A stretch of DNA of 64,000 nucleotides, from contig DAHVQG010000004.1 of the NCBI GenBank assembly GCA_027317865.1, positions 32,001 to 96,000 of the forward strand, in the 5' to 3' direction. How positions within the stretch are numbered: position 1 is the stretch's first letter; each line of letters begins with the position of its first letter. The notes below the pieces were generated by a model. The model made no database searches and had not been told where the DNA came from. It saw only the letters and a program-made list of their open reading frames with translations. Positions 38,499 to 58,063 of the stretch are shown piece by piece. Origin of the DNA: Bdellovibrionales bacterium (GTDB lineage: Bacteria > Bdellovibrionota > Bdellovibrionia > Bdellovibrionales > UBA1609). A program made the translations under genes and the position numbers.

Positions 38499-38666
38499 GT
38501 TTTGCCTCCCACTTGTGTGCAACGCTTTTGAATTGCAAATGCCGCTCCATGAGCCTTTGAACCGAAATTGGGGTGGGGGCGCGGAATTAATCCTCGCTCG
38601 CGGCGGGTTTTGTACGTTTAAAATAAGCTCACGCTGGTACAACCATTGCACTGTCTCGGAGCAACT

Positions 38667-39053
38667 ATGATTGATCTGGATGAGCAAAGGCGATTTCTTG
38701 AAAAACGCCGAAATGACATTTTGTCGCAAGAAAAATCCATCCGCACACAAGCGCTCGGGGAGCTTTCTCCTGAACAAACCGGCGAGATATCGGGCGCCCG
38801 TCTGCACCCCGCCGATTTGGGTTCCGACACACAAGAAATCGAAACTCTCGAAACGCTTTCAGAACGAAATATTCAAACATTACGCGATATTGACGACGCG
38901 TTTGAACGAATCGAAAGCGGCACATACGGCATTTGCGCGTCTTGCGGTAATACCATTGCCGCTGCCCGTCTTAAAATCTTACCCGAAACCCGTTTGTGCC
39001 AACAGTGTGAAATTCGATTGGAACAGTTGCCTTCGAAATCCCCGTTGGGGTAA
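38667..39053 (+). CDS. DksA/TraR C4 zinc-finger protein
   Basis: HPADLGSD, IDDAFERIESGTYGICASCG..I..ARL..LP..RLC..C. Confidence 0.9.
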   Translation: MIDLDEQRRFLEKRRNDILSQEKSIRTQALGELSPEQTGEISGARLHPADLGSDTQEIETLETLSERNIQTLRDIDDAFERIESGTYGICASCGNTIAAARLKILPETRLCQQCEIRLEQLPSKSPLG

Positions 39054-39080
39054 GAAATGCCAAACCGAAAAGGGGGGATT

Positions 39081-39779
39081 ATGAAAACATTAGTACTCGG
39101 GCTTTTACTCGCGTTAGCTTATCAGCCCTGCGCTCAAGCGCTACAGTTTCAATTAGCACCGCCGTGCGGACGACACGCGTCTGTTGGCGAAGTTTGTTCA
39201 CTGCCAATTCTTGCATTGCATCCGACGCAATTTACACTTGGGATGATCGAAGTCCGAGCCCGCGCAGCGCAATTCGAAAGAAAAAAACCGGCGAAATTCG
39301 CGAAATACATGAAAAAGCATAACGTACCGGTCGTCATCGGTCCGGACGGCGTCTTTTATATGACCGATCACCACCACTTGTCCCGCGCGCTATATGAAGA
39401 CGGCGTCCGAACAGTCAATGCGCAAGTGACACACGACTGGTCGAATTTGAACAGGGCGCAGTTTTGGTCCCGGATGGAGTCAACAAAGCAAGTTTATCTC
39501 TATGAAGATGGCCGCGGACCGCTTTCACCGAGCGAACTTCCGAATAACATCTTACAGTTAAAAAATGACTACTACCGCAGTTTAGCTTGGGCCGTGTGTT
39601 CCCAAACGAAAGCATTCAAAAAAGAAAAGGTCCTCTTTTTTAGTTTTTATTGGGCCAATTTTTTCAGAGCGCGCATACCGGATTCACTCGTTCGCAATCA
39701 TTTTGAACAGGCGGTACAGTTAGGCGCTCAATTAGCACGTTCACCAGCGGCAAAAGGAATGCCCGGCTATCGCGGCTAA
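39081..39779 (+). CDS. ParB/Srx-like (ParBc_2-type) protein with signal peptide
   Basis: MKTLVLGLLLALAYQPCAQA; LHPTQ, VPVVIGP, YMTDHHHLSRA, LKNDYYRSLAW, FYWANFFR. Confidence 0.78.
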   Translation: MKTLVLGLLLALAYQPCAQALQFQLAPPCGRHASVGEVCSLPILALHPTQFTLGMIEVRARAAQFERKKPAKFAKYMKKHNVPVVIGPDGVFYMTDHHHLSRALYEDGVRTVNAQVTHDWSNLNRAQFWSRMESTKQVYLYEDGRGPLSPSELPNNILQLKNDYYRSLAWAVCSQTKAFKKEKVLFFSFYWANFFRARIPDSLVRNHFEQAVQLGAQLARSPAAKGMPGYRG

Positions 39780-39792
39780 GATTTTCAAGCCA

Positions 39793-40878
39793 TCAGGGTT
39801 CAAAGCAAAACCAGCCACCGACGGGGAAATGGTCGGTGGCACCACTTCCGGTTACCGGGTCAAAAGCAAGCGGTTTGCCACTTGGCGAAATAAACTCGTG
39901 GTGCCGAAGCGGCCCAAAGCTCCCTTGCTGCAAATATTTTAAAAAGTTTTGCGAAACAATGATCTGATCAAAGACTTCCCAACGCTTGCCGGCTTCAAAA
40001 AAACAGGTGGCCCGCTCTTTGAGTAAGCTTTCGGCATAATCATCTATTGTTTGCTTGTTTGCGCCTGGGTGTGCGGCCTTAAAATCGGCCATCCGTTTTT
40101 TCAAATTGAATGACTCTTCCTCTAAGTTACGCAATTTCTCAGTCATGCTTAATCCAAGACCGGCTTTCATTTCCGGGCTGTCGGGTTCCGCATTGAAATC
40201 ACCCATAATGATAATATTCGCAATCGGATTTCGTGACAAAATTTGATCGGTGACTTTTTTTAAAAACCGCGCCGCTTGAAACCGCTGCAACGCCGACCAG
40301 TCACCCAGTTTTTTACTTGGCCAATGGTTTACAAAGACAATCAGCTCTTCATCGTTTGGTAACCTTAAATGATATTCGACGATGGGTCTGGTCAAAAGAC
40401 CGCCTGAAAATTCTTTGCGCCCAAACCGCTTACGTTGCCGCCATAACGGATCGTCTTCGCTCCAATAGATATGCGCAACGGGCCCCTTAAGCATTGGAAA
40501 CCGTGAAATTAGCCCCAAGTTATTGCCGCGATCGTCCGCCTGAGGAGCAACGCCGTGACTGGCAAGACCCGATTTTTTCATCAAAGGATGCCGTACAAGT
40601 TGTGTCAAAAAATCACCGTCAACTTCGACGACTGCCAATAAATCGGGCCCTTTGTTGTCGTTCATTGAAGAAACCAATTTGGCTACCGCTTCAACTTTTT
40701 TTATTTCACTCTGTTTGTTCGGAAGAAATTTCTTATCGTGAATCAATTTAAACGCGTTCATCGTCGCTAGAAGATGCCCGCAAGAATAATTTGCGGATTT
40801 CTGCCGAGTCACCCCAATCGCATATGCGGGAACAAAAAAAATCGCACCCGCAAGCAGCAGGCGTTTCAACTTAGTCAT
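39793..40878 (-). CDS. Exported endonuclease/exonuclease/phosphatase (EEP) family protein
   Basis: Signal peptide; LAVVEV, VNHWPSK, MGDFN, FDQIIVS, TDHFPV catalytic motifs; ATG 40878 overlaps the upstream stop. Confidence 0.88.
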   Translation of the reverse strand: MTKLKRLLLAGAIFFVPAYAIGVTRQKSANYSCGHLLATMNAFKLIHDKKFLPNKQSEIKKVEAVAKLVSSMNDNKGPDLLAVVEVDGDFLTQLVRHPLMKKSGLASHGVAPQADDRGNNLGLISRFPMLKGPVAHIYWSEDDPLWRQRKRFGRKEFSGGLLTRPIVEYHLRLPNDEELIVFVNHWPSKKLGDWSALQRFQAARFLKKVTDQILSRNPIANIIIMGDFNAEPDSPEMKAGLGLSMTEKLRNLEEESFNLKKRMADFKAAHPGANKQTIDDYAESLLKERATCFFEAGKRWEVFDQIIVSQNFLKYLQQGSFGPLRHHEFISPSGKPLAFDPVTGSGATDHFPVGGWFCFEP

Positions 40879-42379
40879 CGTAACCCGAAAGCAAATCATC
40901 GCAATTCAGCTCCAACTGAGCCGACATTTTTTCAAATAATTTACGCTCACCGCTATTTAACGAATTAAAAAGATATCGCCGCCCCAACGGGCTGGAGTCA
41001 ACCGCCCGCAAAAGGTTTTTAAAAAAATCACGATTATTCAGTAGCGATTGACCCTTAAATTTTTCACCTCGAAATATTCCGATCAATCGCTTGAAATTAT
41101 ATTCAGTGGCGGTGCCCCTTTCGGCCATCCCCAATAGATCCTTAAATAAATCAAGCGCTGTCATCGGGGGATAAAGGCTTTTTGAAATTCGTTTTTTCGC
41201 GACCTGCATATATATCGCCATCGAATCAGTTGAATAATCTTTACTTGAAGATGACGTTTCGTCCTTATTACGCCAGTGCGGCACTTCGCCCCAACCATCC
41301 GAAAAAGAGGAAAATAGTGTTCGCCTTTCTTTAAACAGATCGGGAGCGGGAACTTGATCTTTAGGTATAAAAGTCAACGATTCGGTTCGTTTAAGTGGAA
41401 ATTCATACCCAAGTTCCAGCGCCGCTTTCTTAACTAAATCGATAAAGGTTGGGTCTCTCACAATTTTCATCACGTCGAACATTTCGCCGAGAATAGTTTC
41501 ATGCGCGGATGGCACATCTGCCCCCGGCGTTGTGCTTACTCGGCCATCCGCCGTGCGATGAAACGGACCAAACATTTCATGCCATCCGGTGGTATATGTG
41601 AGCGATGACGTTACCTTAGGCAAATAAAACGGATGAACCGGGCCTTCGGTCGTTATGTGACTGCGCTCCGATTCTTTCAATTGTTCAATATTAAGCGATG
41701 GCCTAATCACGTTGCTTTCAGTGCCGCCGCTCATGCCTATGCCAACGAAATTAACGCGATCGTAAAGCTTCTTTAAATCGCCTCCTTGAAGCGAATAACT
41801 TTGGTAAGCGGCGCGAATCAACTGACGCGATTGACTCGTTGAACGCCAACTCGTTACATCAAAGACGACAAACGGATAATCGTCGTTCATCTTTTCGAAA
41901 CTCAGCCCATTGCTACGTAAAAAATCAAACAAAAGCTCTCTGTCGTTTTGTGACGACTCTGTTGTCGCATTATAATAGTGTGGAAAACTCGGCCCGCTGG
42001 CATCCAGGCGCCTCACGCGGTTCTGTTGACCGATTGATTGATAGAAACCATCAAGCAAATCGGTCAGAAGCGCAACGTCGCGCCCAAGTCCAAGATATGT
42101 CGCACCCGGAAAAGCTCTTTCCATTGACGCAATGATGATTGCCGCATTTTGCGGTGAAAGCGAAACACCGTTATAAAACGGATTTATTGACGGCCATGTA
42201 TTGATTCCATATTTTGCGTCCATCGCAGATACAAACTCGTTTACAGTCGGACGGTTTCTTTGCTCTAAAAGCATTTGAATTGAATCGGCCGACCTCACGT
42301 TCATGCCGGCGGCCCGGCGGCCGTTGAAAACGCCAACTGTAAAAACGCAAATAAACGCCAAGCTTATCCAATACTTCAT
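40871..42379 (-). CDS. Exported PRTase-like 'GRD' family protein, paralog 3
   Basis: Signal-like N-terminus; FPGATYLGLGRD, SIGQQNRVRRL, PFVVFD, LGYEFPLKR shared with 48785 and 53594; C-terminal NCDDLL. Confidence 0.6.
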   Translation of the reverse strand: MKYWISLAFICVFTVGVFNGRRAAGMNVRSADSIQMLLEQRNRPTVNEFVSAMDAKYGINTWPSINPFYNGVSLSPQNAAIIIASMERAFPGATYLGLGRDVALLTDLLDGFYQSIGQQNRVRRLDASGPSFPHYYNATTESSQNDRELLFDFLRSNGLSFEKMNDDYPFVVFDVTSWRSTSQSRQLIRAAYQSYSLQGGDLKKLYDRVNFVGIGMSGGTESNVIRPSLNIEQLKESERSHITTEGPVHPFYLPKVTSSLTYTTGWHEMFGPFHRTADGRVSTTPGADVPSAHETILGEMFDVMKIVRDPTFIDLVKKAALELGYEFPLKRTESLTFIPKDQVPAPDLFKERRTLFSSFSDGWGEVPHWRNKDETSSSSKDYSTDSMAIYMQVAKKRISKSLYPPMTALDLFKDLLGMAERGTATEYNFKRLIGIFRGEKFKGQSLLNNRDFFKNLLRAVDSSPLGRRYLFNSLNSGERKLFEKMSAQLELNCDDLLSGYDD

Positions 42380-44442
42380 ATACCTTCCAAATTCTCGTGA
42401 TCAATAAGCAAATCAGCGCAACTGTGATTTTCAAAAATATTTTTGTATTGTTTGTATAGCGTCTTCCGCGCATCGGGCTGCAATCGTTCGATAGCTTGCC
42501 GGAGTTGCTCGCGGTTAGGATGCAATTCCAAAAACTTTGCAAATGAAACTGCCACAAAATCCGACATACGCCGTTCATACTTCGGCGTCGGATCTTCTTG
42601 GTCGAACTGTATAAGCCTTACATATTCGCTTGGAGTACGGACATAAGCCCTCATGACCTTTTTCATGTATTCAATAAACGGGGGACCGTGGCGCACCAGC
42701 GTTTTCAGTTCGTTCAATTGGTCAAAGCCGGGATGGCTCGCCATGATTAAATCCAAATTGTCTACCACAATTTGGGCAATCTGAGGTTTATTGAGCGTTC
42801 GGACAACCATCATATTTTTCACATATGAAATAAATGTCTCAGGTGAAGTAAGCGCTTGGCTCCATTCGTAATTTGCCACAAGAGGTATCAGAAGCGCCGA
42901 ATACTTTTCTTTTCGTAAATCATTTTCATCATTGTCGAGATAGTCCTTAATATTCAAATATTCGCTTTCGTTTAACGTAGTGAAAAGATTGTACCGGCGA
43001 ATTACGTAGTCGATAAAATCCGGATCTGCATTCCGAGCAATCAGCGCCGTTAAATTTTCTCGCGAAATATTCAAAGTTTCTGGAATGAGACTTAAACTAT
43101 TCCGGTTATACACGCTGATGATTCCCGGCATAAGCACGCTAAAATCTTTATTTTGAACCGAACGGGGATTAACCTCAAAACCAACCCAAATTTCGCCCGG
43201 TTTTCGAACAGGCGTCTCAGATAAAATAATACCGGGAGGACCCCGCATTGGATTCGTTTTTTGGTCGGGCAGCAACAAGTTAGGAGCGTTGAGTTTACCC
43301 ATACGAAGACGCTCGAATGTTTCAAAGTCATAAATTTTCATATAGGCCGTTTTTATTCCAAGTTCGCCCGCTGTCGCACCCTGTACGCCGCCCAAAGAAA
43401 ACGCCGGCAATGGCTTTTGCTCCATTAACCATGCAAGCGAATCCGTATCACTGCGCGACCCAAACGTAGAAAGGTCTTTGCGCACACCCATTCTGTTTAA
43501 ATCAGCCCATGCGGCGTTTACGTCTAAGGCGTTGTTGATAAGCTTATTTGCGTTTTTTTCGATCCAGCGCAAAGCTCCGTGATATTGCGGATCTGTCTTA
43601 ATTTTTGAAAATGGTGCCGTTCGCAAGATCCTTTCAACAACTTTGAGGCTATTGCGATCGGGTTTAAGGCCATACTCAAATACTTTTATTAAAAACCTCA
43701 ATGCACTGATGACAACAGGATTGCCGGACGAAGATCGCGAAGTGGAATGATGAAGGCCGGTATTAAAATAGGTGATTTCTCCACGGGCGACGTCGTGAAA
43801 AAACAATCCTTCATCGCGGCGGAATTTTCTCAAATCTTGAATTCGTGATCGCTCACCCGTTGGGTCAGTAATCTCAATAAGGCCTGTGGATCCCGAGTCT
43901 GTATTTTGATTCTTAAAATCTTCATTGTTTAAAATGTCCGCCTTGAAACCGATGGAATACTGGAGCGGGCGCACTTCCCAAACCGAAATAGTTTTACCAC
44001 CCGTTGTCTTTTTGTAGGGGAATTTCATCTCAAGGTCATGCTGAAGTTCTTCCGCATATTGAGGTTTCGCGTCAACCACAATATCGATGTCCTGATTAAA
44101 ATGAAATATATTGACGATGCTAAAATCCAGCCGATCAGCGGAGAAGTCCCGCGAACCGAGTTCATATTGTTCCGCCCAACGGCAATAAACGGCAAAGGCC
44201 TCCGCCGCTCCACCAAAAAGATAAGCCCGTATGCCTCTTTTTTCCGCCCATTCCTTTATAAATTGAAACTCTTTTACACGGTCCAAATCAGTCTGGATTA
44301 GCTTTTCAAACTCGAGATACGATCCGTTTTGCCTCGAAATGGAAAGCATTTCGGGGGGATTTTCGTTCGCCGACGCGAACGAAGGCCCGCATATAAGTAC
44401 AAGTGCGAAAACTGGCAAAAGAAATAGATTTAAAACCTTCAT
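42376..44442 (-). CDS. Exported nucleotidyltransferase-like protein (CCA/poly(A) polymerase-like head)
   Basis: Signal peptide ...FASA; AYLFGGAA, QDIDIVVD, DFKNQNTDS, SALRFL; C-terminal SCADLL. Confidence 0.6.
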   Translation of the reverse strand: MKVLNLFLLPVFALVLICGPSFASANENPPEMLSISRQNGSYLEFEKLIQTDLDRVKEFQFIKEWAEKRGIRAYLFGGAAEAFAVYCRWAEQYELGSRDFSADRLDFSIVNIFHFNQDIDIVVDAKPQYAEELQHDLEMKFPYKKTTGGKTISVWEVRPLQYSIGFKADILNNEDFKNQNTDSGSTGLIEITDPTGERSRIQDLRKFRRDEGLFFHDVARGEITYFNTGLHHSTSRSSSGNPVVISALRFLIKVFEYGLKPDRNSLKVVERILRTAPFSKIKTDPQYHGALRWIEKNANKLINNALDVNAAWADLNRMGVRKDLSTFGSRSDTDSLAWLMEQKPLPAFSLGGVQGATAGELGIKTAYMKIYDFETFERLRMGKLNAPNLLLPDQKTNPMRGPPGIILSETPVRKPGEIWVGFEVNPRSVQNKDFSVLMPGIISVYNRNSLSLIPETLNISRENLTALIARNADPDFIDYVIRRYNLFTTLNESEYLNIKDYLDNDENDLRKEKYSALLIPLVANYEWSQALTSPETFISYVKNMMVVRTLNKPQIAQIVVDNLDLIMASHPGFDQLNELKTLVRHGPPFIEYMKKVMRAYVRTPSEYVRLIQFDQEDPTPKYERRMSDFVAVSFAKFLELHPNREQLRQAIERLQPDARKTLYKQYKNIFENHSCADLLIDHENLEGI

Positions 44443-44459
44443 CCTTTAATTCGCAACCT

Positions 44460-47400
44460 TCATTCCTCTTTTGTGTTTGCGCTAACGGGTTGACGTATCA
44501 TTTTCGATAATAGAGTTGCGCACGAAACCGGCTTTGCGTTTTTTGCGCGCGCCTGCCAATCTTCGTACGTCCGAACCGGCTGTTGTGCGCTCTTTAATTT
44601 TTCTTCAATTTTGTGTTCAAGATCCTGAGCTCGCGATTCGCTTATGTCCCCTTTACGCATCAGCTCGGCGACTATCGCGCGAACAAGCGGCCATTTTTCT
44701 TTAAGAACGGCGATCGCAATTTCATGAGCGCGCGAAATCATTTGGCTTTGCTTTTGTTCAAACAATTGCCTTTGTCGCGAAGTTGCAAGAATTGGATTGC
44801 CTTTTTTATCGACTTGAACTCCTACAAGGTCGGTATCCATTCCCCATGTGGTGAGATATTCGGTTGTTACATATCTCATCGATTTCAAATCGTTTTGCCA
44901 TCCAATGTCGGCAGGTAAGCCCGCAAGCTCTTGAGCCACTCGACCGCCCCAAGCTTTAACAAGAAATGCCATCGTCTTATCGTAGTTGAAATTCGTATCC
45001 GCCCCGGGGATCGGCTTGTAATGCGCGTAGCCTTTTGCCGTTATCATTTTGCCGGTGAAATCTTTGAGGCGAGAATAGCGGATCGTAATATAATTCAAGA
45101 TCTCATTGGTTAATTCGGGATCATTTAAAACCGCGTGGCCAGCTTCATGGTAAGCCACTGTCTCAGCGTGTTTACCTAGCGGAATTTCGACTTCGGGCGC
45201 GAATTCCGTAAAGTCTTTTTGTATATAATCGAGTTTTTTACCATCCTTGTACACTTCAACGCCGACTAGAACCTTACGCGGCTCCGATTTTTTCTGGCGG
45301 TACGGTTTATTCGTCAAATTATCTTGAACATCGAGTTTGAATACATACGAAGACAAATCGTGCCCGATGTCGCCAGTCTTCATCAGTGCGGCTCCAAGAA
45401 GCGCACCCAGCCGGTTATCAAGCGCATTTCGAACCGATCGGCCACCTGTATCCGGGGTAAAAAATGCTCGGGTAAAATTCTCAACAAATTTAGGGCCGTA
45501 TTCAACAATCAGGCCCACGTGCTGTTCTTGCAGTCTGCGAATTTGATTTTTAAGTTCCTTTTCTGTGACACCTTTCATTTCGGTGGAAAGAAGCGGTTTC
45601 GCCAGTATGACGTCGGCTAGGCGCCCGAGAAACGCTTCGGGAATCCCATTTTTCACAAGATTCGCGCGAATGATCTCTTTCTTATTATTTTCGTTGTACG
45701 CATCCATTCTCAATTTATCGGTACTGAGACTCGTGAAGAATTCCTGCAAATCGTTGCCGGTGAATTCAAAAATATGATTTCGAAGATCGTATGTTCGGCC
45801 TGTTGCTGTCGACGTCCATTTGCCTTCGTCTAAAATTTCGTAGAAGTATTGCTTAAGCAGCTCTTCTTTGCGTTTGATGTCACCCCCGCCCATGTTAGAA
45901 AATTCATCGAAAACAATCACCCCGCCGTTTGGAGTGTTCATGAGCGCTCGCTCGAATTTTCCGATTTTGTGAGAGTCGACGTACCCGGCCGGTGAATTGA
46001 ATACGTCGTTCAAACGGCCCTCGAAATTAACATTGCCGAGTGGAATGACTTCAACTCGATCGGGTGAACCAAAAAGCGCCTCCGCAATTGCGCGGCCCAA
46101 TTCCGTCTTACCGACGCCCGTTGGGCCCACAATGGCAAACGATACGGCGGTTTTTCGACCCACGTCCGCATATTTCGACAATACGGCATCCGCTGCGCTT
46201 CGAACCGCTTCGTCTTGCCCGATAATCCGCGTCTTCATTCGTTCGGGCATCGATTGGATTTTTTCTAAAATTTCTTTGTCTTGAAGAGGATTAAAAAATT
46301 TCTGCTCGGGAGCGGCAACATCCAGGCTCTCGCTGTTGGTCCCATTTGTTACGCTCAATTTCACATCGGATGAGTTTTCGTTTTTGACTAAACCGATTTT
46401 AACTGTCCCATCCCGAGGGATATCCCAGTGGGCGCGTGCCTCGCGAATGGCAACTTTAAGATACGAATCGACCTGTTTGGCAACTTGCCGGTAGCCGTCC
46501 GTAACCGAAAATCCGGTCAGCGCTAAATGTTCAACCACAGCCGGCGAGACGTCGAGATGGAGATGATATTCAAACTCCATTTCGTTTTGCAATTTTTCAG
46601 TTTCACGGCGGGCAACCTCAATCGCGCCTTCTCGTGAACCCGGGTTGGCAATCGCCCACTCGTCGATTCGGCCCAAAACTTCCGGAGGTAATTGAAATTT
46701 GTCTTCGCCATCCGTCTTTTCGCGAAACAGTGCCGCGACGTCTTTTGATTTAAAACCTGCAAGTCGGCGATCGATTTCAGCCTGACTCCACATCGTAATA
46801 TTGTCCGGAAAAACGAGCTTCGCTCCCCGATTACTCGTGAGGATAACGATGTGACGGTTTGCCCGGCGAACTTTGCCATCGCCGCATGTAATTTCACCTT
46901 TATCAAAAAACTCCATTAACCGCTTCCACACATCAGGATGCATTTTTTCGGCTTCATTAATTACGATCACGCCGCCCATCTTGCCGCGAGAGGGGTCATC
47001 AAGGTATTCGCACAAAATACCGGACCTCTTATCTGAAGTTACCGTGCCGTTCGGTGAACCCACCAAAGTATTCACCGACAAGTCGCCGGTCTGATAGGTA
47101 TTGCCGTCTATAATGAGCGCTCTTCTTTTTGAACCGAATACTTTTTCAGCCAACGTTTCGGCAATTAAAGTCTTGCCGGTACCGGTAGTCCCGATAATCG
47201 CCATGACTTGCGGGCGCCTCGGGGTTCCGATTAATAAATTACCGACGCGTTCGACAAGCTTGTGAACCAAAGATTTCTGTTCAACAACAACGGAATCGAT
47301 CTCTTTTTCTTTCTCAGCTAAATATTCTTGAAAAGCCTTACCGTCGTGAGGGTTCGCCGGCAGCCCCGTGATCTCTTTTGCGTAATCGTAGATTTCGCTA

Positions 47401-48812
47401 TCGGTAATTTTGGCTGGTGCCCCGTCGTTCAGTCTGTGTACGTGAATGGCGAGACCTTGCAAAACTTTAAACGGACCGTCCGGGCGTGCCGTATCCGGTT
47501 GCAACAGCGGCGCGACTTTAACCGCAGCTTCGATCGCGTCGTCAGTGAATTCCACATTATACTTCTTTTCGATAACGGGAACCCAACTTGCCTTCAAAAT
47601 CCTAATCGTCGTTGCTTCATCGAACTCAGTAAGACCGATTTGTTCCACACGGCGAAGAAGCGCTTCATTATCTTTGAATTTATTCTGAAACTTATCCGAA
47701 TTACTTGCGCCCAAAATGGTAATGCCGCGATCTCTGGCATCCATGTAAGGCAATAACGCTTCAATCTGCGCCTCGTTAAACGTGTGAAATTCATCCACGA
47801 ATACGATGATTGGCTTACGTTCGCCGTTGTGATCCTGAGCATATGATTGCTCATAAAAAAGAACCGCGTCAAAAAATTGTTCTACCGCTTCGGCCATCGA
47901 ATTCGGATCATTCGATTTTGCAAGCCGCGAGATCCTTGCGGGCGTAACTTGAATCATCTCCGCATTATCAAATGCCTCATTAAAAACTTCGGTATCCGGG
48001 TATAAATGTTCCACCAAGATTTGGGCTACGCGTTCGGCGGCCGCAGTTTTACCCACTCCGGGTATACCGATAAAAACCGGATTTTTGCCTTTTATCCGCA
48101 CAAGAGTGTCAAGCGCTCGCTCAGCTTCTTTGTCACGCCCCAGTGTTTCGACGAACGAGCCGTTTTCAATGCTCTTTTTCACTTCGTCGGTCATAAAATT
48201 AGTAGTCGCGGTCAGTATGATCTTCGCCGCGGCCATTTTTTCTTCACCTTCCGCTCCGGTGGAATCGCGCAAAAGTTGATCTTTAAACGACTGACCGTCT
48301 TGCGCACTTGCCGTTTGTTCCACCGGTAACGGTGTCGGATTCGAGCGAATGCGCTCTCGAATTTCTAAAAACAAGTCGTCCAATTTATTTTTAGTTTGAG
48401 CGTTGAACGCCGTAGACGCGCGAAATTTTTCGTAAATCTTGTTGAATTGTTCAACTTCAGCGACACTCCCCATCGATCCGATACCGTTAAGATACTCTGA
48501 AATGTGAAAAGAGTTCGGTTTAGGTTTCGCTACCTCGATCTTTAGTTTCGCCATTAGAAAATTTAAAACCATGCGATACGGAAAATCTTTCAGCGACGAA
48601 ATTAATTTGGATGTTTCGACGGGATCACGGCTCGTATCGACGGCTTTCATTTTGCCGATCATGAGATTATATTCTTTTTCAGACGGCGTTCGGCCCGACT
48701 TATTTAAAGACTGTGCAAATCCGCAAGCGCCGAAAAAAATTCCGGCCACAAGCGCGAAAGCGACTAAAATCTCACTTTTTGAATCTAAGATTCGTTTATA
48801 ACTTCGGCGCAT
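44460..48812 (-). CDS. Exported triple-AAA+ (ClpA/B-like) ATPase fused to FtsH-type M41 peptidase
   Basis: Walker A GIPGVGKT, GTTGTGKT, GPTGVGKT; Walker B VFVDE, VINE, VFDE; IIGQDEAV; AYHEAGH...GGRVAQEL...NDL; RBS AAGGGG upstream of the ATG. Confidence 0.85.
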   Translation of the reverse strand: MRRSYKRILDSKSEILVAFALVAGIFFGACGFAQSLNKSGRTPSEKEYNLMIGKMKAVDTSRDPVETSKLISSLKDFPYRMVLNFLMAKLKIEVAKPKPNSFHISEYLNGIGSMGSVAEVEQFNKIYEKFRASTAFNAQTKNKLDDLFLEIRERIRSNPTPLPVEQTASAQDGQSFKDQLLRDSTGAEGEEKMAAAKIILTATTNFMTDEVKKSIENGSFVETLGRDKEAERALDTLVRIKGKNPVFIGIPGVGKTAAAERVAQILVEHLYPDTEVFNEAFDNAEMIQVTPARISRLAKSNDPNSMAEAVEQFFDAVLFYEQSYAQDHNGERKPIIVFVDEFHTFNEAQIEALLPYMDARDRGITILGASNSDKFQNKFKDNEALLRRVEQIGLTEFDEATTIRILKASWVPVIEKKYNVEFTDDAIEAAVKVAPLLQPDTARPDGPFKVLQGLAIHVHRLNDGAPAKITDSEIYDYAKEITGLPANPHDGKAFQEYLAEKEKEIDSVVVEQKSLVHKLVERVGNLLIGTPRRPQVMAIIGTTGTGKTLIAETLAEKVFGSKRRALIIDGNTYQTGDLSVNTLVGSPNGTVTSDKRSGILCEYLDDPSRGKMGGVIVINEAEKMHPDVWKRLMEFFDKGEITCGDGKVRRANRHIVILTSNRGAKLVFPDNITMWSQAEIDRRLAGFKSKDVAALFREKTDGEDKFQLPPEVLGRIDEWAIANPGSREGAIEVARRETEKLQNEMEFEYHLHLDVSPAVVEHLALTGFSVTDGYRQVAKQVDSYLKVAIREARAHWDIPRDGTVKIGLVKNENSSDVKLSVTNGTNSESLDVAAPEQKFFNPLQDKEILEKIQSMPERMKTRIIGQDEAVRSAADAVLSKYADVGRKTAVSFAIVGPTGVGKTELGRAIAEALFGSPDRVEVIPLGNVNFEGRLNDVFNSPAGYVDSHKIGKFERALMNTPNGGVIVFDEFSNMGGGDIKRKEELLKQYFYEILDEGKWTSTATGRTYDLRNHIFEFTGNDLQEFFTSLSTDKLRMDAYNENNKKEIIRANLVKNGIPEAFLGRLADVILAKPLLSTEMKGVTEKELKNQIRRLQEQHVGLIVEYGPKFVENFTRAFFTPDTGGRSVRNALDNRLGALLGAALMKTGDIGHDLSSYVFKLDVQDNLTNKPYRQKKSEPRKVLVGVEVYKDGKKLDYIQKDFTEFAPEVEIPLGKHAETVAYHEAGHAVLNDPELTNEILNYITIRYSRLKDFTGKMITAKGYAHYKPIPGADTNFNYDKTMAFLVKAWGGRVAQELAGLPADIGWQNDLKSMRYVTTEYLTTWGMDTDLVGVQVDKKGNPILATSRQRQLFEQKQSQMISRAHEIAIAVLKEKWPLVRAIVAELMRKGDISESRAQDLEHKIEEKLKSAQQPVRTYEDWQARAKNAKPVSCATLLSKMIRQPVSANTKEE

Positions 48813-50401
48813 GATTCCCCTTTTAGGTTTTGCTTAACCCTTTCAAATAACCTTATTTTTTTCAGCGTCCAGTAGAGCGTCTTTTTCTGGTCGATCTCGT
48901 AAATTTTTTTCTTCAAGTTCGGAACCGTTCTAAAAAGTTTTGCGTATGCTTCGAGAAACGACGACGTAATTTTAAAGTCGCTACTAAGGGCGGCAATCAC
49001 CATGTCGGCCACATCGGCTTGAGTGGCCCACGCGCTCGAATAAGCATTGGATAGGTAATTTAAAAAGCGCGGCATTATTGCGCTAAGCTTGCTCACTGAA
49101 CTGTGTCGTGCCCGTATATGTTGCCAGGTACTCTGAAGGTAATTGAAATTGACGCCGTTTTGTCCCGCCCCATTGCTTTGTGCAACTTGCATAGCGGTTT
49201 CGTTCACAGCTCGCGCTTTAGGCGTGAAATTTGAAAAATCAAACCCGGGAGCGTTCGCCTTTTTCACCATATCGTCATTGTGTTGCAAATCCTGCCTGAT
49301 GATATCGGTGAGGTTCGTCGCGGCAGATGACGGCTCACTCGCCTCAGGTGACGGTCTTTTAAGTGGGAATTCATAACCAAGCTTTTTAGCAGCCTCGTAA
49401 ACTTGATGGTGAAATGTCTCAGAGTTGACTGCGTTCCAAATTTCTTTTTGCATCCATAATATATTTTCGTGCGTTCTCAGATCCGTAATATTTCCGGGAG
49501 TTGCCTTTAACTTTCCGTCTATTGAAACAATCGGCCCGAATGACTCTGTCCACGCCCCGGAAAAATGCTCGTATCCAGCCTCGTTCGATTTGTCTTGGTT
49601 TTCTGAAAAGCCCGTAAGTTTGAACTCGTCCCCGAAATTATGGGGCCGATCTCCGGTCAGGCTAAACTGGATTTCAAGATCACGCGATACGCTCTTGATC
49701 GCTGAAGACGGTACTGGAGCTGATCTAAACGTGCTCACAAACAACGCAAACATGTTTAGCTTTTTAATTAGATCCGCCGGTTTGCCTTTAAGATCATTGG
49801 CGTAATGGGAATACAAGGCGTTCAAAAACATTCGCCCTTGCTGTCCGCCTCCGGTTGAAACGGTATCGACAAACACGTACGGTTCGCGACGTTTGATATC
49901 CTTGAAACTAAAACCGTGTTCCAAAACAAAATGAACCAATGTTTGCGGAGTAACGCCGTTGAAACTGGCCTTGCTTACCATCAACCGCACAACCCGGTTT
50001 TGTTGCCCAATCGAGAGGTAAAATCCTTCGAGCATGTCCGCAATTGCCTGCGAATCGCGGCCGATAAATGCCCATGTCGCACCCGGAAATGTTTTTTCCA
50101 TCGCCGCGATCAGAGTTGGCCCATGCTTAAGCATCACTTTAACCCAATGCTCAGGCTGGTAAACGTGCGCATTTTTGACCTGAATAACGCTCGGTACATC
50201 TTCAAATTCAGGCAACTGGTTTAAAAAAGGTACTGATTCAGCCATCGTCGGGCGCGACGGCATTTCAAGCAGTCGAACAATATCCGGAGGAATATTCACG
50301 GCCCAACTGTTGTCTTGTTGCTGTCCTCGCGAAGTCGCGGACACCGAAACCGTCAGCAAAAAAGTAAAACTATAAATTAAAACTTGTGACGCAATTCTCA
50401 T
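48785..50401 (-). CDS. Exported PRTase-like 'GRD' family protein, paralog 2
   Basis: Signal peptide ...SVSA; FPGATWAFIGRDS, YVFVDTVSTGGG (PRPP-loop-like), LGYEFPLKR; C-terminal SCAEVI. Confidence 0.62.
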   Translation of the reverse strand: MRIASQVLIYSFTFLLTVSVSATSRGQQQDNSWAVNIPPDIVRLLEMPSRPTMAESVPFLNQLPEFEDVPSVIQVKNAHVYQPEHWVKVMLKHGPTLIAAMEKTFPGATWAFIGRDSQAIADMLEGFYLSIGQQNRVVRLMVSKASFNGVTPQTLVHFVLEHGFSFKDIKRREPYVFVDTVSTGGGQQGRMFLNALYSHYANDLKGKPADLIKKLNMFALFVSTFRSAPVPSSAIKSVSRDLEIQFSLTGDRPHNFGDEFKLTGFSENQDKSNEAGYEHFSGAWTESFGPIVSIDGKLKATPGNITDLRTHENILWMQKEIWNAVNSETFHHQVYEAAKKLGYEFPLKRPSPEASEPSSAATNLTDIIRQDLQHNDDMVKKANAPGFDFSNFTPKARAVNETAMQVAQSNGAGQNGVNFNYLQSTWQHIRARHSSVSKLSAIMPRFLNYLSNAYSSAWATQADVADMVIAALSSDFKITSSFLEAYAKLFRTVPNLKKKIYEIDQKKTLYWTLKKIRLFERVKQNLKGESCAEVINES

Positions 50402-52158
50402 TCTTCAGCATCCATCGGTTCAAATTCATCTTTGGGGAATTCATGTCTGTCAGACCTTGGGTTCACCAATGATCTTTCAATCTCAACCTTCTTTTGGCTT
50501 TCTAGCTCTTCAACAACGGACGCGACCTTCTCGGCGCTATCGGCAACCAGTATGTGGCTCTTGATTTCTGGCGAAAGCGAACTGTTCGCTATAAATTTAA
50601 GTAAATACGAGTAGTACTTTGAATTTTGAATCACGACGTACGGGGGCCGCTTCGAGTATTGAATCGCCACGAGCGTCGCCGCGAGCTCGCGCATGGTTCC
50701 GTTACCGCCGGGCTCAATAATTACTAAATCACGATTGTTTACTAGCAACGGTATCCGTGAATGGTAATCAAGCGTCGGAATCGTGTGCGATTGAACTTCG
50801 CTTCTTGTATCCGTCTCGTAAGGCAGCGCTCCACGACCGACGCGGGGTATTCCAATTGAAGGTCCACCCGCATCGTAGGCCCCCATGTTTGCCGCGTACA
50901 TAACTCCACCAGCACCTCCGGTAACCACCGGAATGCCGCGGCTCCCGAACCAATATGCCGTTTGATACGTGTCGGGGGCGACTTCTTCGTCTAAACGGCT
51001 CGACCCGAAAACAGCGGCACCGCGAACGCCAGAAAGAACTCTTACACCTGAACGAGTAACGTCCACGTGCTCAAGAAGAGCAATGATTTCACCAAGACTC
51101 ATATTATTTGGCGAAATGCTAAATGCTTTTAGATTAACTGGATCTTTTACGGCCGGGAAAACCGAATACCGTACTGATTCCAAAACGCGAGTGGCGTTGA
51201 CGATTGCAGATATCGAGTTTGTGATGCCAAGCCGCCGGTAGGATATTCCAAAACCCCTTTTTTCAGATTCCAGTAGACTCGACCAATCGTGAAGGCGATT
51301 TTTTGTATTACCGTCGAGGTCGAGAACAAATCCCGCATCATTATTGAGGAGTGCGGCCATCCCTAACGTCGAGTCCGGGCTTACAATTGCCGGCAAGGCA
51401 TGTGAAACGACTTCAAGAAATGAATACGAATTATTGAAATGTAAAACAATGCCAGGACGGCCTCTTTCATTTCTTGCCCCGGCTTCGGGTAACATTGAAA
51501 TTCCGATGCCGCAGGGACCCGCCGCTCGAGCAATTATTTCCGCCGCTTTGTTGTCGGCATCGTAGATAATTGTATAGTTTTTTGCCACGAGCTGAGCGAC
51601 AAGCCGTTCGTACTTCGTGGCTTCGGTGTCTGTTGGCGCACGATCGGACGAACCAACGAGAACCGAAACCAGTTTCGAGCGCGGCAACCTGTACACTTCT
51701 AATATTTGTTTGTAGTCTTCAAAAAATCCTCTATCTTCGGGTACAGCCAACCGCTCTTTTAGAACCGGGATCAACGACAACCGGTTTTTTTCTTTTAATT
51801 CTTCGATCAACCCCTCGAGTTTTTTTATTTTAAATTTGAGGTCAGCTATCTTCTTTTTGACTTCCGCGCGTTTTTCCGGTGAACGGGCTGCTGGTGATTT
51901 TTCGGCGTATTCGAGGTAAAAACCCCAAAAATCGCTTGCATCACTTGACTCAAGTTTGTTTTTTAATGACCTAATCTCGCGTTCCATTTCGCGAAGTTTT
52001 TCTATTGCTTCGACGAGTTGCGGGCTGCGGTATTCGGCAAGTTTAAAGGCCTGGGCTTTTTCACCTTTTAAGACACGGTCGCAAGGCTGCCCGTAGGCGC
52101 TAGAAATCGCGAAGGTTGAAACCACAAAAGCGCATAAAAACAAGCGGCGCGAAATCAT
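50398..52158 (-). CDS. Exported tandem LOG/SLOG nucleotide phosphoribohydrolase
   Basis: AAVFGSS, VTGGAGGVM, SIGI, SRIPLL, PGGNGTMREL; preceding degenerate LOG copy; N-terminus SRRLFL...AYG. Confidence 0.82.
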   Translation of the reverse strand: MISRRLFLCAFVVSTFAISSAYGQPCDRVLKGEKAQAFKLAEYRSPQLVEAIEKLREMEREIRSLKNKLESSDASDFWGFYLEYAEKSPAARSPEKRAEVKKKIADLKFKIKKLEGLIEELKEKNRLSLIPVLKERLAVPEDRGFFEDYKQILEVYRLPRSKLVSVLVGSSDRAPTDTEATKYERLVAQLVAKNYTIIYDADNKAAEIIARAAGPCGIGISMLPEAGARNERGRPGIVLHFNNSYSFLEVVSHALPAIVSPDSTLGMAALLNNDAGFVLDLDGNTKNRLHDWSSLLESEKRGFGISYRRLGITNSISAIVNATRVLESVRYSVFPAVKDPVNLKAFSISPNNMSLGEIIALLEHVDVTRSGVRVLSGVRGAAVFGSSRLDEEVAPDTYQTAYWFGSRGIPVVTGGAGGVMYAANMGAYDAGGPSIGIPRVGRGALPYETDTRSEVQSHTIPTLDYHSRIPLLVNNRDLVIIEPGGNGTMRELAATLVAIQYSKRPPYVVIQNSKYYSYLLKFIANSSLSPEIKSHILVADSAEKVASVVEELESQKKVEIERSLVNPRSDRHEFPKDEFEPMDAEE

Positions 52159-53597
52159 TGAGAACCTTTCAGTATCGCCTGACAGTCGCCAGCGGATTTA
52201 TCATGTGGTTTAACAATAAGATCTTCGACAGCACGGCCGAGTTCCTCACCGATCGGGACAATGACGAGTTTGGAATTCTGTTTTACGACCGCATTTGATA
52301 CGGGATACGAATCCGTCACAACCAGTTGATCAATAGATGCACTATTGAGCGCTTTACCGCCGTCGCCCGCGAGGTGTGTAACGACCGCAATAACTTTAGT
52401 CGCCCCTGCTTTCTTCAAATAATCAGCCACGTCCGCTAATGTGCCCCCGGTTGACGTTTCATCGTCTACAATAGCGACAACTTTGCCCGCCGGGCTCGGT
52501 CCGCTGAATCCGTAAAATTTTGTTTGAGCAGTGAGTGGATCGCGCTGTTTATTGGCGACAGCAACAGGCAACTTCAGCATGTCCGCATAAAGCGTGGCAT
52601 CTTTTTGAAATCCCGTATCCGGTGAAACAATCATTTCAACATCGGCATTTCGCAAGTACGCGCACAATGTATTAAGGCCCAAAACATTAAAGCTCGGAAT
52701 ATCAAAAAAGCCCTGTGATTGCGGAGCGTGTGCCCGAGCAAATTCGATAGCCTCTGTGCCAACACTTTCAATTAAGTCGGCAATCAGACGGCCAATCACC
52801 GTTACACCTTTTTGATCCGCCTTATCCGATCGCGCCCACGGCAACGGCGTTACCCACGTTACGGCGGCTCCATCTCTTGTCATCTGCGCAACTCGCGCCA
52901 AGGCGGCAAAAAAGGTTTCACTTTTGGGGATTACGACTGGCCTCACAAAAATTATTTGCGCGCCCTTTACCGCTCCTCTCGGGAGAGAACCTGGATTATA
53001 AACCGGCAAATTCAGAACACGCCCCATATCGCGAGCAATCGAATCGTGGGAGTCTTGAAGAATAAAACTGTGTGTCAGATGATGCCTGCCGGGCCAAACA
53101 CGACGGATTCTAATGGTTCGCGGATGGTTCCCGTTTTCAACAAACTTGGTCGCACCCGCTATGCCGATAAGCGATTCCACCGGTAAGGCAAGCGAACCGT
53201 TTGCGGTCGTGACCCGTATTTTTGAAATCGAAGTATTAAGAAAAGCAACAATCTCTCGTGCACCGAGCGTTCTTGCCGTTCGAATCTTAATCAAAGCCTC
53301 CATAAACATTTGGGGCGTCATTTCATCTGGAATCAAAATCCCGACTCGTTTGCCAGTAAGATTGGTCTGCACGCGCACGAAAGTGTCGCCGTTAGAAAAC
53401 TCTTGAGTTTTTTCTTCAATCATCCGGCAGCCAGGGTGTGACGTGCAGAATCGATTAGCAGCTTCTGAAAAATTACGTACAGAGAATAGTAATACGCTTC
53501 GATTGCGGGCGCTGGCGTAACCCGAGCCGACGAGCATAAGGGTCGTCATGCTCAAAAATGCAATTTTATTTAAACCCAACCCTTTCATCGTCCTCAC
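52155..53597 (-). CDS. Exported ribose-phosphate pyrophosphokinase (PRPP synthetase)-like protein with duplicated N-domain
   Basis: FSNGD, PWARSDK, HAPQSQGFFDIP, VSPDTG, KQR, IVDDETSTGGTL; signal peptide ...YASA; C-terminal DCQAIL. Confidence 0.88.
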   Translation of the reverse strand: MRTMKGLGLNKIAFLSMTTLMLVGSGYASARNRSVLLFSVRNFSEAANRFCTSHPGCRMIEEKTQEFSNGDTFVRVQTNLTGKRVGILIPDEMTPQMFMEALIKIRTARTLGAREIVAFLNTSISKIRVTTANGSLALPVESLIGIAGATKFVENGNHPRTIRIRRVWPGRHHLTHSFILQDSHDSIARDMGRVLNLPVYNPGSLPRGAVKGAQIIFVRPVVIPKSETFFAALARVAQMTRDGAAVTWVTPLPWARSDKADQKGVTVIGRLIADLIESVGTEAIEFARAHAPQSQGFFDIPSFNVLGLNTLCAYLRNADVEMIVSPDTGFQKDATLYADMLKLPVAVANKQRDPLTAQTKFYGFSGPSPAGKVVAIVDDETSTGGTLADVADYLKKAGATKVIAVVTHLAGDGGKALNSASIDQLVVTDSYPVSNAVVKQNSKLVIVPIGEELGRAVEDLIVKPHDKSAGDCQAILKGSQ

Positions 53598-55198
53598 CCT
53601 GCAGGTTTCAAAACGTCACTACACGTGGCTTCTAACATTTTACTTAACCGCTCATATGCCTTCGATCCGAGCGGACCGGATTTATGTTCGTTATTTAAAA
53701 AATATTCCCTCTTTGAGTTCCAAACTTCTTCGAAGGTGCGGCTGTTATGGTAGAGATGCGCCAAGCCGCTTTCAAATTTCTCACGCTCGCTCACGGCCGC
53801 GCCATTAACCGTGTCTTCACTTGCAATTGGATAGTTCGCAAGTAAACGCTTGATTAGGCGGCGAAGATCGCGCGCGCTAATTTTGCCATTTTCAAATGCA
53901 TGTACCGAACCCGCTAAAAACATGAGCGCAATTTGACCCGAATTTTTGTCAGTGCGGCCGTAAACATCCGATTTCATAAGAGACAAAATCTTCATTCCGT
54001 TTTCAGTCATCGGTTCGGCATCTTCACCAACAGGGCCAAGCTCTGAAATTATATCTTTGAACGATCTCTGCGCTTCAGCTATACGCTGTTCGGCAATTTC
54101 GTCGGCCGTTAGCATTCGAATGTCCGTTCGTTCGCGCGCGCGCCCCTCTGGGAACTCATACCCCAGTTCTCTAGCCGCTTTTTGCACTTCACTATAAAAC
54201 TCTTTTGTCGAAACAATTCCTATGATGTCGTACAGACCACCTAAAATTGTTTGGCGTATTTCAACGCTGGACAGACCTCCAGGTGGAGCGAAAACGCGCC
54301 CGTCTTGCATGCGCTGAAGTTGAAGGAATGGGCCGTGCCACTCTGAGCTGTAAGCAAGTTGGGCGCCATCGATTTTCAAAATTCGATCAGGACCGGTTGG
54401 CTGAGCATTCGATGTTTTAATGTACTTTTCGATTTTTTTTACAGTTTCATAATTTTGCGATCCAATTATCGGGTAGTTCGAATTTTTTATGTCAATGACA
54501 TTGACCTTCATCAAAAGGTTCGTGAGCGGCTTTTGTGTGCCTTGGTACACACTATAAAACGCACCAATATATTGGCGGCTTTGGCTCGTAGGGCTGTAAC
54601 TGGTCGCATCGATAATAATAAACGGCGGGTCTTGATCCACAGACTGCAGATGAAGTCCGTTAGTCGCCAAAAAATCGACCAAAATATCGGGCGTGCTGCC
54701 AACCAAAGATTGCCCGCTTGCATTGAGCCGCACGACGCGATGGTTTTGCCCGTGAGCTCGGTAAAAAGCGTCGACCATATCGGCAATCAATGCGGAGTCG
54801 CGACCCAAAAACGCATACGTTCCGCCCGGGTAGGCCGCTTCAAGACTAGCAATAATTTTTGGCCCGTCAGCCTTGGTTACAGCCACGGCTTGCGAACGTT
54901 CACCGGCATTTCTAAAGGGATTTTTTCTTGGCCACGGCGTTAACGCATTTTCGATTTCGGCAATGGTCGGGCGAGATTGCATGTTAAGCAATTCATTGAT
55001 TTTTTCATCACGAGCCTTTTTAGCTAATTGCTCCTGAACTTGCGGTTCGCCCCCATCGCTCAAATTAGTTGTCGTTATAGTCCCAAAGGCTCCGTGCCAG
55101 GACGTCCGGCTATTCGCCGCACGAACCTTCGCCGACACCGAAGCTGCTACAATTAAACCGGCGATCAACATTGATAACGCCTTACCCATTTTCCCCAC
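53594..55198 (-). CDS. Exported PRTase-like 'GRD' family protein, paralog 1
   Basis: Signal peptide ...SVSA; YPGGTYAFLGRDS, RVVRLNAS, PFIIID, LGYEFP; C-terminal TCSDVL. Confidence 0.6.
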   Translation of the reverse strand: MGKMGKALSMLIAGLIVAASVSAKVRAANSRTSWHGAFGTITTTNLSDGGEPQVQEQLAKKARDEKINELLNMQSRPTIAEIENALTPWPRKNPFRNAGERSQAVAVTKADGPKIIASLEAAYPGGTYAFLGRDSALIADMVDAFYRAHGQNHRVVRLNASGQSLVGSTPDILVDFLATNGLHLQSVDQDPPFIIIDATSYSPTSQSRQYIGAFYSVYQGTQKPLTNLLMKVNVIDIKNSNYPIIGSQNYETVKKIEKYIKTSNAQPTGPDRILKIDGAQLAYSSEWHGPFLQLQRMQDGRVFAPPGGLSSVEIRQTILGGLYDIIGIVSTKEFYSEVQKAARELGYEFPEGRARERTDIRMLTADEIAEQRIAEAQRSFKDIISELGPVGEDAEPMTENGMKILSLMKSDVYGRTDKNSGQIALMFLAGSVHAFENGKISARDLRRLIKRLLANYPIASEDTVNGAAVSEREKFESGLAHLYHNSRTFEEVWNSKREYFLNNEHKSGPLGSKAYERLSKMLEATCSDVLKPAG

Positions 55199-55201
55199 TG
55201 G

Positions 55202-57986: not shown

Positions 57987-58063
57987 TGGCGTCCCCGGCA
58001 AGAATTGAACTTGCGGCCTGCAGTTTAGGAAACTGCTGCTCTATCCGGCTGAGCTACGGGGAC
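57987..58063 (-). tRNA. tRNA-Arg (anticodon CCT)
   Basis: GTCCCCGTAGCTCAGCCGGATAGAGCAGCAGTTTCCTAAACTGCAGGCCGCAAGTTCAATTCTTGCCGGGGACGCCA folds as a cloverleaf, anticodon CCT, encoded CCA. Confidence 0.96.

Follow-up and report, generated by a model that had tools for sequence, protein, structure and literature searches.

A window of 64,000 nucleotides from a Bdellovibrionales bacterium (NCBI GenBank assembly GCA_027317865.1, contig DAHVQG010000004.1, positions 32,001 to 96,000 of the forward strand) contains an operon with three members of a protein family, here called GRD, for whose predicted fold the only matches are enzymes that transfer ribose-phosphate to sugars with phosphoribosyl pyrophosphate (PRPP) as the donor. 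We read the three GRD proteins as Sec-exported transferases with the fold of glycan phosphoribosyltransferases (gPRTs), which would be supplied by LOG-type enzymes and a PRPP synthase (ribose-phosphate diphosphokinase, PRS) exported together with them; the route would lead from nucleoside monophosphates (NMPs) through ribose-5-phosphate and PRPP to a phosphoribosylated acceptor. We estimate the probability of this reading at about 0.5. For the analysis the minus-strand open reading frames (ORFs) and their translations were examined, and coordinates are given as positions in the window. Nine ORFs follow each other from position 57613 down to 39793, and since neighbors overlap by 4 to 29 nucleotides or are separated by gaps of 3 to 17 nucleotides, they are regarded as a single operon. 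Besides GRD paralogs 1, 2 and 3 the operon encodes two proteins with a SLOG/LOG domain (803 and 586 amino acids), the PRS, a fusion of AAA+ modules with an M41 peptidase, a protein of 688 amino acids and an endonuclease/exonuclease/phosphatase (EEP) family protein (Table 1).

The three GRD ORFs are true, anciently diverged paralogs. Pairwise BLASTP comparisons gave E values of 9e-34 (34% identity over 321 amino acids), 3e-54 (31% over 497 amino acids) and 1e-39 (30% over 343 amino acids). An earlier note on this DNA had described a common core of about 300 amino acids, two types of loop and divergent helical C-termini, and all three descriptions were borne out. The elements RPT..E, PG.T(Y/W)...GRD, FY...GQ..RV.RL..S, P(F/Y)hhhD, W...F, PG and AA..LGYEFP are found in the three-way alignment, together with the loop YVFVDTVSTGGG in paralog 2 and D(V/A)TS(W/Y)..TSQ in the other two, and the C-terminal part of about 170 amino acids is predicted to be helical and diverges between the proteins. 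The similarity of paralog 2 to paralogs 1 and 3 stops near residue 350. The part of the GRD profile that covers the helical C-terminus (about 315-470) also matches two proteins that do not belong to the GRD family, L035:7921-9795 from the genome G169 with 50.6 bits and L011:1960-4059 with 38.5 bits; one of the two is the G169 homolog of the 688-amino-acid protein. The helical tail may thus be a module that is common to different enzymes of GRD loci.

Among 1.84 billion representatives, a full search with the profile identified 345 GRD family members at E≤1e-3, 280 of them at E≤1e-30. With a word-indexed search of 5.8 billion proteins no more than five relatives were obtained, and a metagenome scan for relatives found none. 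Some members are giant proteins of up to 1925 amino acids with several matched stretches. None of 32 further members, including long ones, matched a Pfam family at E≤1e-4, and a protein-atlas feature search with the GRD proteins gave no usable match. In an alignment of 103 sequences P124, G132, D197, Q206 and W287 (numbering of paralog 3) are invariant, and R76, P77, E120, G125, R133, D134, D140, Y146, G150, R154 and S161 are conserved in at least 90% of the sequences. A quick maximum-likelihood tree, with branch support from the Shimodaira-Hasegawa-like approximate likelihood ratio test (SH-aLRT), places paralog 2 in a clade of seven sequences from seven genomes (SH-aLRT 98) and paralog 1 in a separate clade of seven sequences (SH-aLRT 95); the sequences similar to paralog 3 did not resolve in this tree. 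Since paralogs 1 and 2 fall into separate clades with several genomes each, the split of the paralogs is old and has been retained.

Evidence on the function of the GRD proteins comes from the predicted structure. The model of the core (residues 52-360, 103 sequences) reached a pLDDT of 92.6 and a pTM of 0.91. It shows a phosphoribosyltransferase (PRTase)-like alpha/beta domain with helical bundles at the flanks, as in gPRT, and judged by this model the GRD core is very probably a gPRT-fold protein. The structural counterparts are the CriT domain of the capsule polymerase Bcs3 from Haemophilus influenzae type b (PDB 8A0C, 8A0M), a PRPP-dependent ribofuranosyltransferase domain, and the gPRT domain of the polysaccharide ribofuranosyltransferase from Thermobacillus composti (PDB 7SHG). 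The structural alignments contain 8% identical residues for CriT (8A0C) and 10% for 7SHG, and similarity to CriT at the profile level was not found.

According to the structural study of CriT, its core is a five-stranded PRTase-like domain between helical bundles, and PRPP docks at one edge of the sheet (PMC10299916). The split 'DD motif' of CriT consists of D680, in a loop that follows the first strand, and E818, with which the third strand ends, and activity requires both residues; R708 is located near the ribose and E874 is the proposed base (PMC10299916). In the GRD model G132-R133-D134 is located after strand 1, and D197 at the end of strand 3 is followed by a Ser/Thr-rich loop and the invariant Q206. 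We infer that D134 corresponds to D680 and D197 to E818 of CriT, and the aligned ranges are compatible with this assignment. The best-conserved GRD residues lie together at that edge of the sheet which serves for PRPP binding in PRTases and CriT. In the proposed active site the near-invariant Asp of the GRD motif after strand 1 would act together with the invariant 'hhhhD' Asp of strand 3, and a cradle for the phosphate would be formed by the Ser/Thr-rich loop with the invariant Gln behind it.

The genes next to the GRD paralogs could provide the substrate. The operon PRS reaches 152.1 bits with TIGR01251 (cut-off 113). It is an extra copy, as the genome also encodes an ordinary PRS of 314 amino acids without a signal peptide or hydrophobic N-terminus, whereas the operon version has a signal-like N-terminus that ends with GSGYASA and is followed by RN. 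Its catalytic motifs are altered in comparison with the housekeeping enzyme (FSNGD, WARSDKA, NKQRD and VDDETSTGGT). It matches the model of the N-terminal PRS domain twice (37-118 and from about 210) with about 90 extra residues between the matches, which points to an insertion or a partial duplication. Both SLOG/LOG proteins have signal-like N-termini, in the larger one LFSFNSAHA followed by AT. The motifs GGxDGxM and PGGKGTLQE of the 803-amino-acid protein and GGAGGVM and PGGNGTMRE of the 586-amino-acid protein resemble GGxGGxM and PGGxGTxxE, which we take to be the LOG signature; the score with TIGR00730 is 48-56 bits and thus below the equivalog cut-off of 96. A Pfam search with the N-terminal 600 amino acids or so of the larger protein returned no family at E≤5, and a BLASTP search for an internal SLOG duplication in the smaller one gave at best a marginal E value of 0.068.

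To define the conserved neighborhood, 13 GRD loci were compared (the window, G037, the four contigs L009-L012 from metagenome-assembled genomes, G169, G067, G347, G288, G088, G324 and G190). Across several families, SLOG/LOG proteins are present beside GRD in eight of the 13 loci and PRS in seven, with both in six. At least two GRD genes occur in seven loci and three GRD genes in four. The G169 locus additionally encodes a homolog of the AAA+ protease with 1434 amino acids (32% identity over the full length) and the homolog of the 688-amino-acid protein mentioned above.

LOG enzymes split an NMP into the base and ribose-5-phosphate, and PRS converts ribose-5-phosphate and ATP to PRPP and AMP. 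In the proposed pathway the LOG-type phosphoribohydrolases would first release ribose-5-phosphate from NMPs, and the dedicated exported PRS would then use ATP to form PRPP on the spot. Each GRD enzyme would finally transfer ribose-5-phosphate from PRPP to a hydroxyl group of a probably polymeric acceptor, and the divergent helical C-terminal domains would shape the choice of this acceptor. The analysis itself establishes that the genes are paralogous and the family conserved, and it provides the predicted fold, the order of the genes, the export-type N-termini and the location in an island. We infer PRPP as the donor with moderate confidence; the transfer chemistry, the catalytic residues and the place of action are proposals as well.

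The same fold could also carry a different chemistry, with another phosphorylated ligand such as a nucleotide, a nucleotide sugar or ribose-5-phosphate, or serve as a non-catalytic binding module. The low identity to the gPRT structures and the missing profile link leave room for this, as a common fold is no proof of a common substrate, and SLOG domains are also thought to be nucleotide sensors. However, both the position of the most conserved residues at the PRPP-binding edge and the recurrence of a dedicated PRPP synthase as a neighbor speak for PRPP, and we consider a different ligand improbable.

The same set of genes can be arranged to a cycle that destroys the nucleotide pool, in which PRS makes PRPP and AMP, LOG splits AMP to adenine and ribose-5-phosphate, and GRD mainly disposes of the PRPP, by hydrolysis or by transfer to small molecules, which keeps the cycle going. 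Such a toxin-like cassette would drain ATP and NMPs from the target compartment. On paper the three activities close this cycle, no partners are conserved beside GRD more often than PRS and SLOG, export signals are present on all components, and a degradative theme would suit the AAA+ protease and the EEP nuclease/phosphatase. But three paralog lineages with large conserved helical domains, which at least four genomes keep next to each other, are more than a sink for PRPP needs, and the fold matches transferases with an open, polymer-accepting site and not hydrolases. A drain of this type is therefore in our opinion an unlikely function of the operon.

The proposed pathway further depends on the export of its components. 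All nine operon proteins begin with a positive n-region and an uncharged hydrophobic segment of 17-24 residues, which mostly has an AxA-like end. Using a lenient rule, a signal-type N-terminus was found in 137 of 150 GRD family representatives, and the mean flank charge in the 131 usable representatives is +2.76 before and -0.25 after the hydrophobic segment, which is the orientation of a Sec signal. Judged from these N-termini, the operon proteins are likely to be exported. At the C-terminus six of the nine proteins additionally have a Cys motif, roughly CxxLL, which is NCDDLL, SCAEVI and TCSDVL in GRD paralogs 1, 2 and 3, and SCADLL, SCATLL and DCQAIL in three of the other proteins; both the motifs and the signal-peptide-like N-termini of the GRD paralogs had been missed by the earlier note. 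The Cys of the motif is the sole Cys of each mature GRD protein. Paralog 2 has a Cys only at position 531, and paralog 1 has Cys 493 in the motif and Cys 11 inside the signal segment. Among the GRD representatives 40 of 150 carry the motif, compared with one of 150 in a control window, and in 24 of 36 motif-carrying representatives the motif Cys is the only one in the mature part.

The motif is not restricted to the operon. Within the last 25 residues C..[LIV]L is present in 35 of 2099 ORFs of the genome, compared with seven and four in two internal control windows, and nearly all of the 35 have signal-like N-termini. The genome-wide form is approximately [ST]-C-A/x-x-[IL]-L, after which another 2-20 residues follow. 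Of 20 such proteins outside the operon that were examined, 15 have no Pfam family; the others are two AAA+-M41 fusions and one protein each of GH15, DUF7790 and TraB/PrgY/GumN. Together with the operon protein the genome encodes three ClpA/B-like AAA+-M41 fusions (window 44460-48812, G000:C22:92359-95850 and G000:C38:191229-194516), each with a signal-like N-terminus and the Cys motif. By these features they appear to be exported ATP-dependent machines. The C-terminal motif looks like a so far undescribed tag for sorting, attachment or delivery.

If the GRD enzymes were periplasmic or anchored in the membrane, the acceptor of the ribofuranose-5-phosphate could be a polymer of the producer's own cell wall or a polysaccharide of its surface, as both characterised structural relatives act on polysaccharides. 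This is hard to reconcile with the gene content of the operon: a Pfam scan revealed no glycosyltransferase and no polymer-export gene, a HAD phosphatase gene is also missing, and an exported AAA+ protease and PRPP synthase fit poorly to envelope synthesis. The N-termini and flank charges point to a catalytic domain that is exported away from the cytoplasmic PRPP. In addition, the island is missing from a genome of the same genus, and the GRD family is present in two of 61 close-relative genomes (window genome counted) and in none of the 36 other genomes searched from its own family. Modification of the own envelope has for these reasons only a small probability.

A cytoplasmic defense or conflict system against phages or plasmids, with the N-termini as membrane anchors or wrongly called starts, is highly improbable. 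It would suit the position of the operon in a variable island beside a tRNA gene, the recurrence of SLOG, PRTase-like and AAA+ modules in conflict systems based on nucleotides, and the weak PADLOC matches of the AAA+ protein. Against it, the GRD proteins match nothing in PADLOC-DB 2.0, most family representatives carry an N-terminal segment with the charge bias typical for Sec, and mature proteins poor in Cys with a common C-terminal Cys motif look like a feature of a secretome. In the PADLOC search only the AAA+, SLOG and PRS proteins of the operon gave matches, all of them weak and partial.

For the exported phosphoribosylation pathway the place of action has to be considered separately. Since all components have signal peptides and the pathway, with PRS and the AAA+ protease, needs ATP and nucleotides, it would act outside the cytoplasm of the producer at a place where these are available. 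This would most likely be in or on a target (prey) cell and less likely the periplasm of the producer itself. The action in another cell is the weakest link of the argument, and we propose it tentatively and with considerable doubt. In the most far-reaching version, which is rather unlikely as a whole, some predatory-type bacteria among the Bdellovibrionota and Myxococcota relatives would export a self-supplying kit of LOG, PRS and three gPRT-fold transferases, which phosphoribosylates macromolecules of another cell with the nucleotides and the ATP of that cell, and the Cys motif would be the handle for delivery. Such a handle could work for example by a disulfide to a carrier, which is released by reduction in the target. 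The proteins marked by the motif would then form a larger exported set, for the most part without annotation, to which ATP-dependent unfoldase-proteases also belong.

A number of results weigh against the proposed pathway. The earlier note had suggested gPRT likeness and PRPP-dependent transferases fed by the neighboring PRS. The predicted fold and the gene context (TIGR01251 passed, PRS beside GRD in seven of 13 loci) agree with this suggestion, whereas a link to gPRTs or type I PRTases at the sequence level did not appear. The GRD paralogs have no match among the Pfam, NCBIfam and PADLOC models at E≤0.01. When the 103-sequence GRD profile was compared with all PDB sequences (E≤10), eight sequences were obtained, all helical or designed and none a gPRT, and hhalign of the GRD alignment with that of the operon PRS gave a probability below 1%. 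Foldseek with two GRD models against the PDB produced nothing at E≤1e-3, and gPRT entries appeared only as weak hits (7shg_B at rank 2 with an E value of 0.02). The equivalence of residues between GRD and CriT is based on the order of secondary structure elements and on aligned ranges, and E874 of CriT has no clearly conserved counterpart among the GRD residues. The rule used to call signal peptides combines hydrophobicity and charge and is passed by 45% of the ORFs of the genome with at least 150 amino acids. PRS was not seen in six of the 13 loci, some of which are cut by contig ends.

The phosphatase partner and the compartment add further objections. Known gPRTs are cytoplasmic and have a HAD phosphatase as partner, and GRD deviates in both respects, with its signal-type N-termini and in that Pfam scans detected no HAD domain in the GRD paralogs, the operon, the G037 locus or 17 further neighbors. 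The EEP protein could be a stand-in for the HAD phosphatase, though it is not conserved in other GRD loci, where BLASTP at 1e-4 to 1e-5 found no homologs. The relatives that carry GRD are labelled Bdellovibrionota or Myxococcota. To our knowledge, no supply of ATP is known for the bacterial periplasm. For the known PRPP-dependent ribofuranosyltransferases a cytoplasmic site of action is stated to be obligatory, as they have access to PRPP there (PMC11127046). An exported transferase with its own exported PRS is therefore unexpected, and in the literature searched, mostly at the level of abstracts, we found no description of the GRD family or of exported PRPP-dependent systems.

Compared with the known systems, the GRD proteins occupy a separate position. 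CriT is cytoplasmic and encoded in a capsule locus, and its fusion partners are a HAD phosphatase and a ribitol-phosphate transferase. In contrast, the GRD proteins are stand-alone proteins with signal peptides, which lack the 80-residue HB-2 insert and a HAD-type phosphatase partner and possess a helical C-terminal domain of their own and the Cys motif. The T. composti enzyme is described as bipartite with a HAD-family phosphatase and as cytoplasmic (PMC11127046). The type I PRTases (HGPRT, OPRT, UPRT and PyrR; Pfam PF00156) contain an adjacent acidic pair and a TG.T loop, whereas GRD has a single acidic residue and no PF00156 match, besides the missing similarity to the operon PRS. Type I PRTases form N-glycosidic bonds to bases in the cytoplasm, and PRPP-dependent glycosyl transfer to acceptors other than bases was recognised only in 2022-2023. 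The operon partners carry the same domains as the LOG family and class I PRPP synthase, whose known reactions would feed a PRPP-using transferase, but the operon versions have export signals and are fused to or extended by unknown parts. Because GRD deviates from gPRTs in sequence similarity, HAD partner, cytoplasmic location and polysaccharide locus, we place it as a variant outside the known members. The GRD proteins would work like gPRT domains and are probably of the same stock.

Table 1. Positions of the operon genes and of the surrounding island in the window.
Feature	Position	Strand	Characteristics
Gene 1, SLOG/LOG protein, 803 amino acids	55202..57613	-	SLOG/LOG domain at residues 615-777; Pfam LDcluster4 53.5 bits and Lysine_decarbox 37.6 bits, both above cut-off
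Gene 2, GRD paralog 3, 534 amino acids	53594..55198	-	Putative signal peptide, predicted gPRT-fold core (about 52-360), helical C-terminal domain, TCSDVL motif
Gene 3, divergent PRS, 480 amino acids	52155..53597	-	NCBIfam TIGR01251; Pfam Pribosyltran_N, Pribosyl_synth and Pribosyltran; C-terminal DCQAIL
Gene 4, SLOG/LOG protein, 586 amino acids	50398..52158	-	Coiled-coil N-terminal part; SLOG/LOG domain at residues 382-546; Pfam LDcluster4 51.4 bits and Lysine_decarbox 47.9 bits, both above cut-off
Gene 5, GRD paralog 2, 538 amino acids	48785..50401	-	Putative signal peptide, predicted gPRT-fold core, YVFVDTVSTGGGQQGR loop, SCAEVI motif
Gene 6, ClpA/ClpB-like multi-AAA+ protein fused to FtsH-type M41 zinc peptidase, 1450 amino acids	44460..48812	-	Signal-like N-terminus; HEAGH present; C-terminal SCATLL
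Gene 7, 688-amino-acid protein, no family match	42376..44442	-	Signal-like N-terminus; C-terminal SCADLL
Gene 8, GRD paralog 1, 502 amino acids	40871..42379	-	Signal-like N-terminus, predicted gPRT-fold core, helical C-terminal domain, NCDDLL motif
Gene 9 (last), EEP family protein, 368 amino acids	39793..40899	-	Pfam Exo_endo_phos_3 78 bits
Island, about 20 kb	36806..57613		Lactamase_B_2 gene, ORF of 332 amino acids, ParB-like nuclease gene and the nine-gene operon; between GreA and tRNA-Arg with sigma-54 response regulator
tRNA-Arg(CCT)	57987..58063	-	Found with ARAGORN; located immediately upstream of the operon; marks one island edge, supported by the synteny break

The remaining operon proteins were characterized by their domain content. 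The AAA+-M41 protein matches AAA_2, AAA, ClpB_D2-small and Peptidase_M41 (49.3 bits) of Pfam and, partially, ClpV1, ClpB and ClpA of NCBIfam. In the family alignment of the 688-amino-acid protein the pattern LFGG.A...QD.D is invariant, and a protein-atlas feature search gave the Gad2 and PolyA_pol-head clusters with a score of 0.85, which is a lead only. From the resemblance of the motif and this pointer the protein is possibly a Pol-beta-type nucleotidyltransferase. Pfam searches with the whole protein, with its halves (E≤5) and with 11 family members gave no match, and a profile search returned no PDB sequence. The EEP protein has a signal-like N-terminus in which VPAYA is followed by IG.

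The operon is part of a variable island, which the earlier note had missed as well. In the genome G004 of the same genus the distance from GreA to the response regulator is about 1.5 kb, compared with 21.3 kb in the window, and synteny is otherwise conserved. At the same site the genome G006 contains other genes, namely those for an RCC1-repeat protein, an aldo-keto reductase, another AAA+-M41 protein and a LysR regulator. No direct repeat of at least 12 nucleotides was found at the edges of the island, and no integrase was seen. The region just upstream of the tRNA gene and the operon (58089-61220) encodes a response regulator of the sigma-54-dependent type together with a PAS histidine kinase. 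The sigma-54 promoter consensus has 32 matches in the window, compared with 30.6 expected, and none of them is located upstream of the operon. Across the phylum the GRD family was detected in 10 of 401 sampled genomes, and the named contigs that carry it belong to Oligoflexia/Oligoflexales (Bdellovibrionota) and Myxococcota.

If the proposed pathway is correct, the gPRT fold extends to a new and unannotated sequence family, and the operon would represent the first PRPP-dependent modification system outside the cytoplasm of the producer. The corresponding extracytoplasmic or inter-cellular modification, phosphoribose with a mass of +212 Da, would be open to a direct search. It would also provide a biochemical entry point to the exported proteins of predatory-type bacteria, including the candidate C-terminal motif for sorting or attachment.

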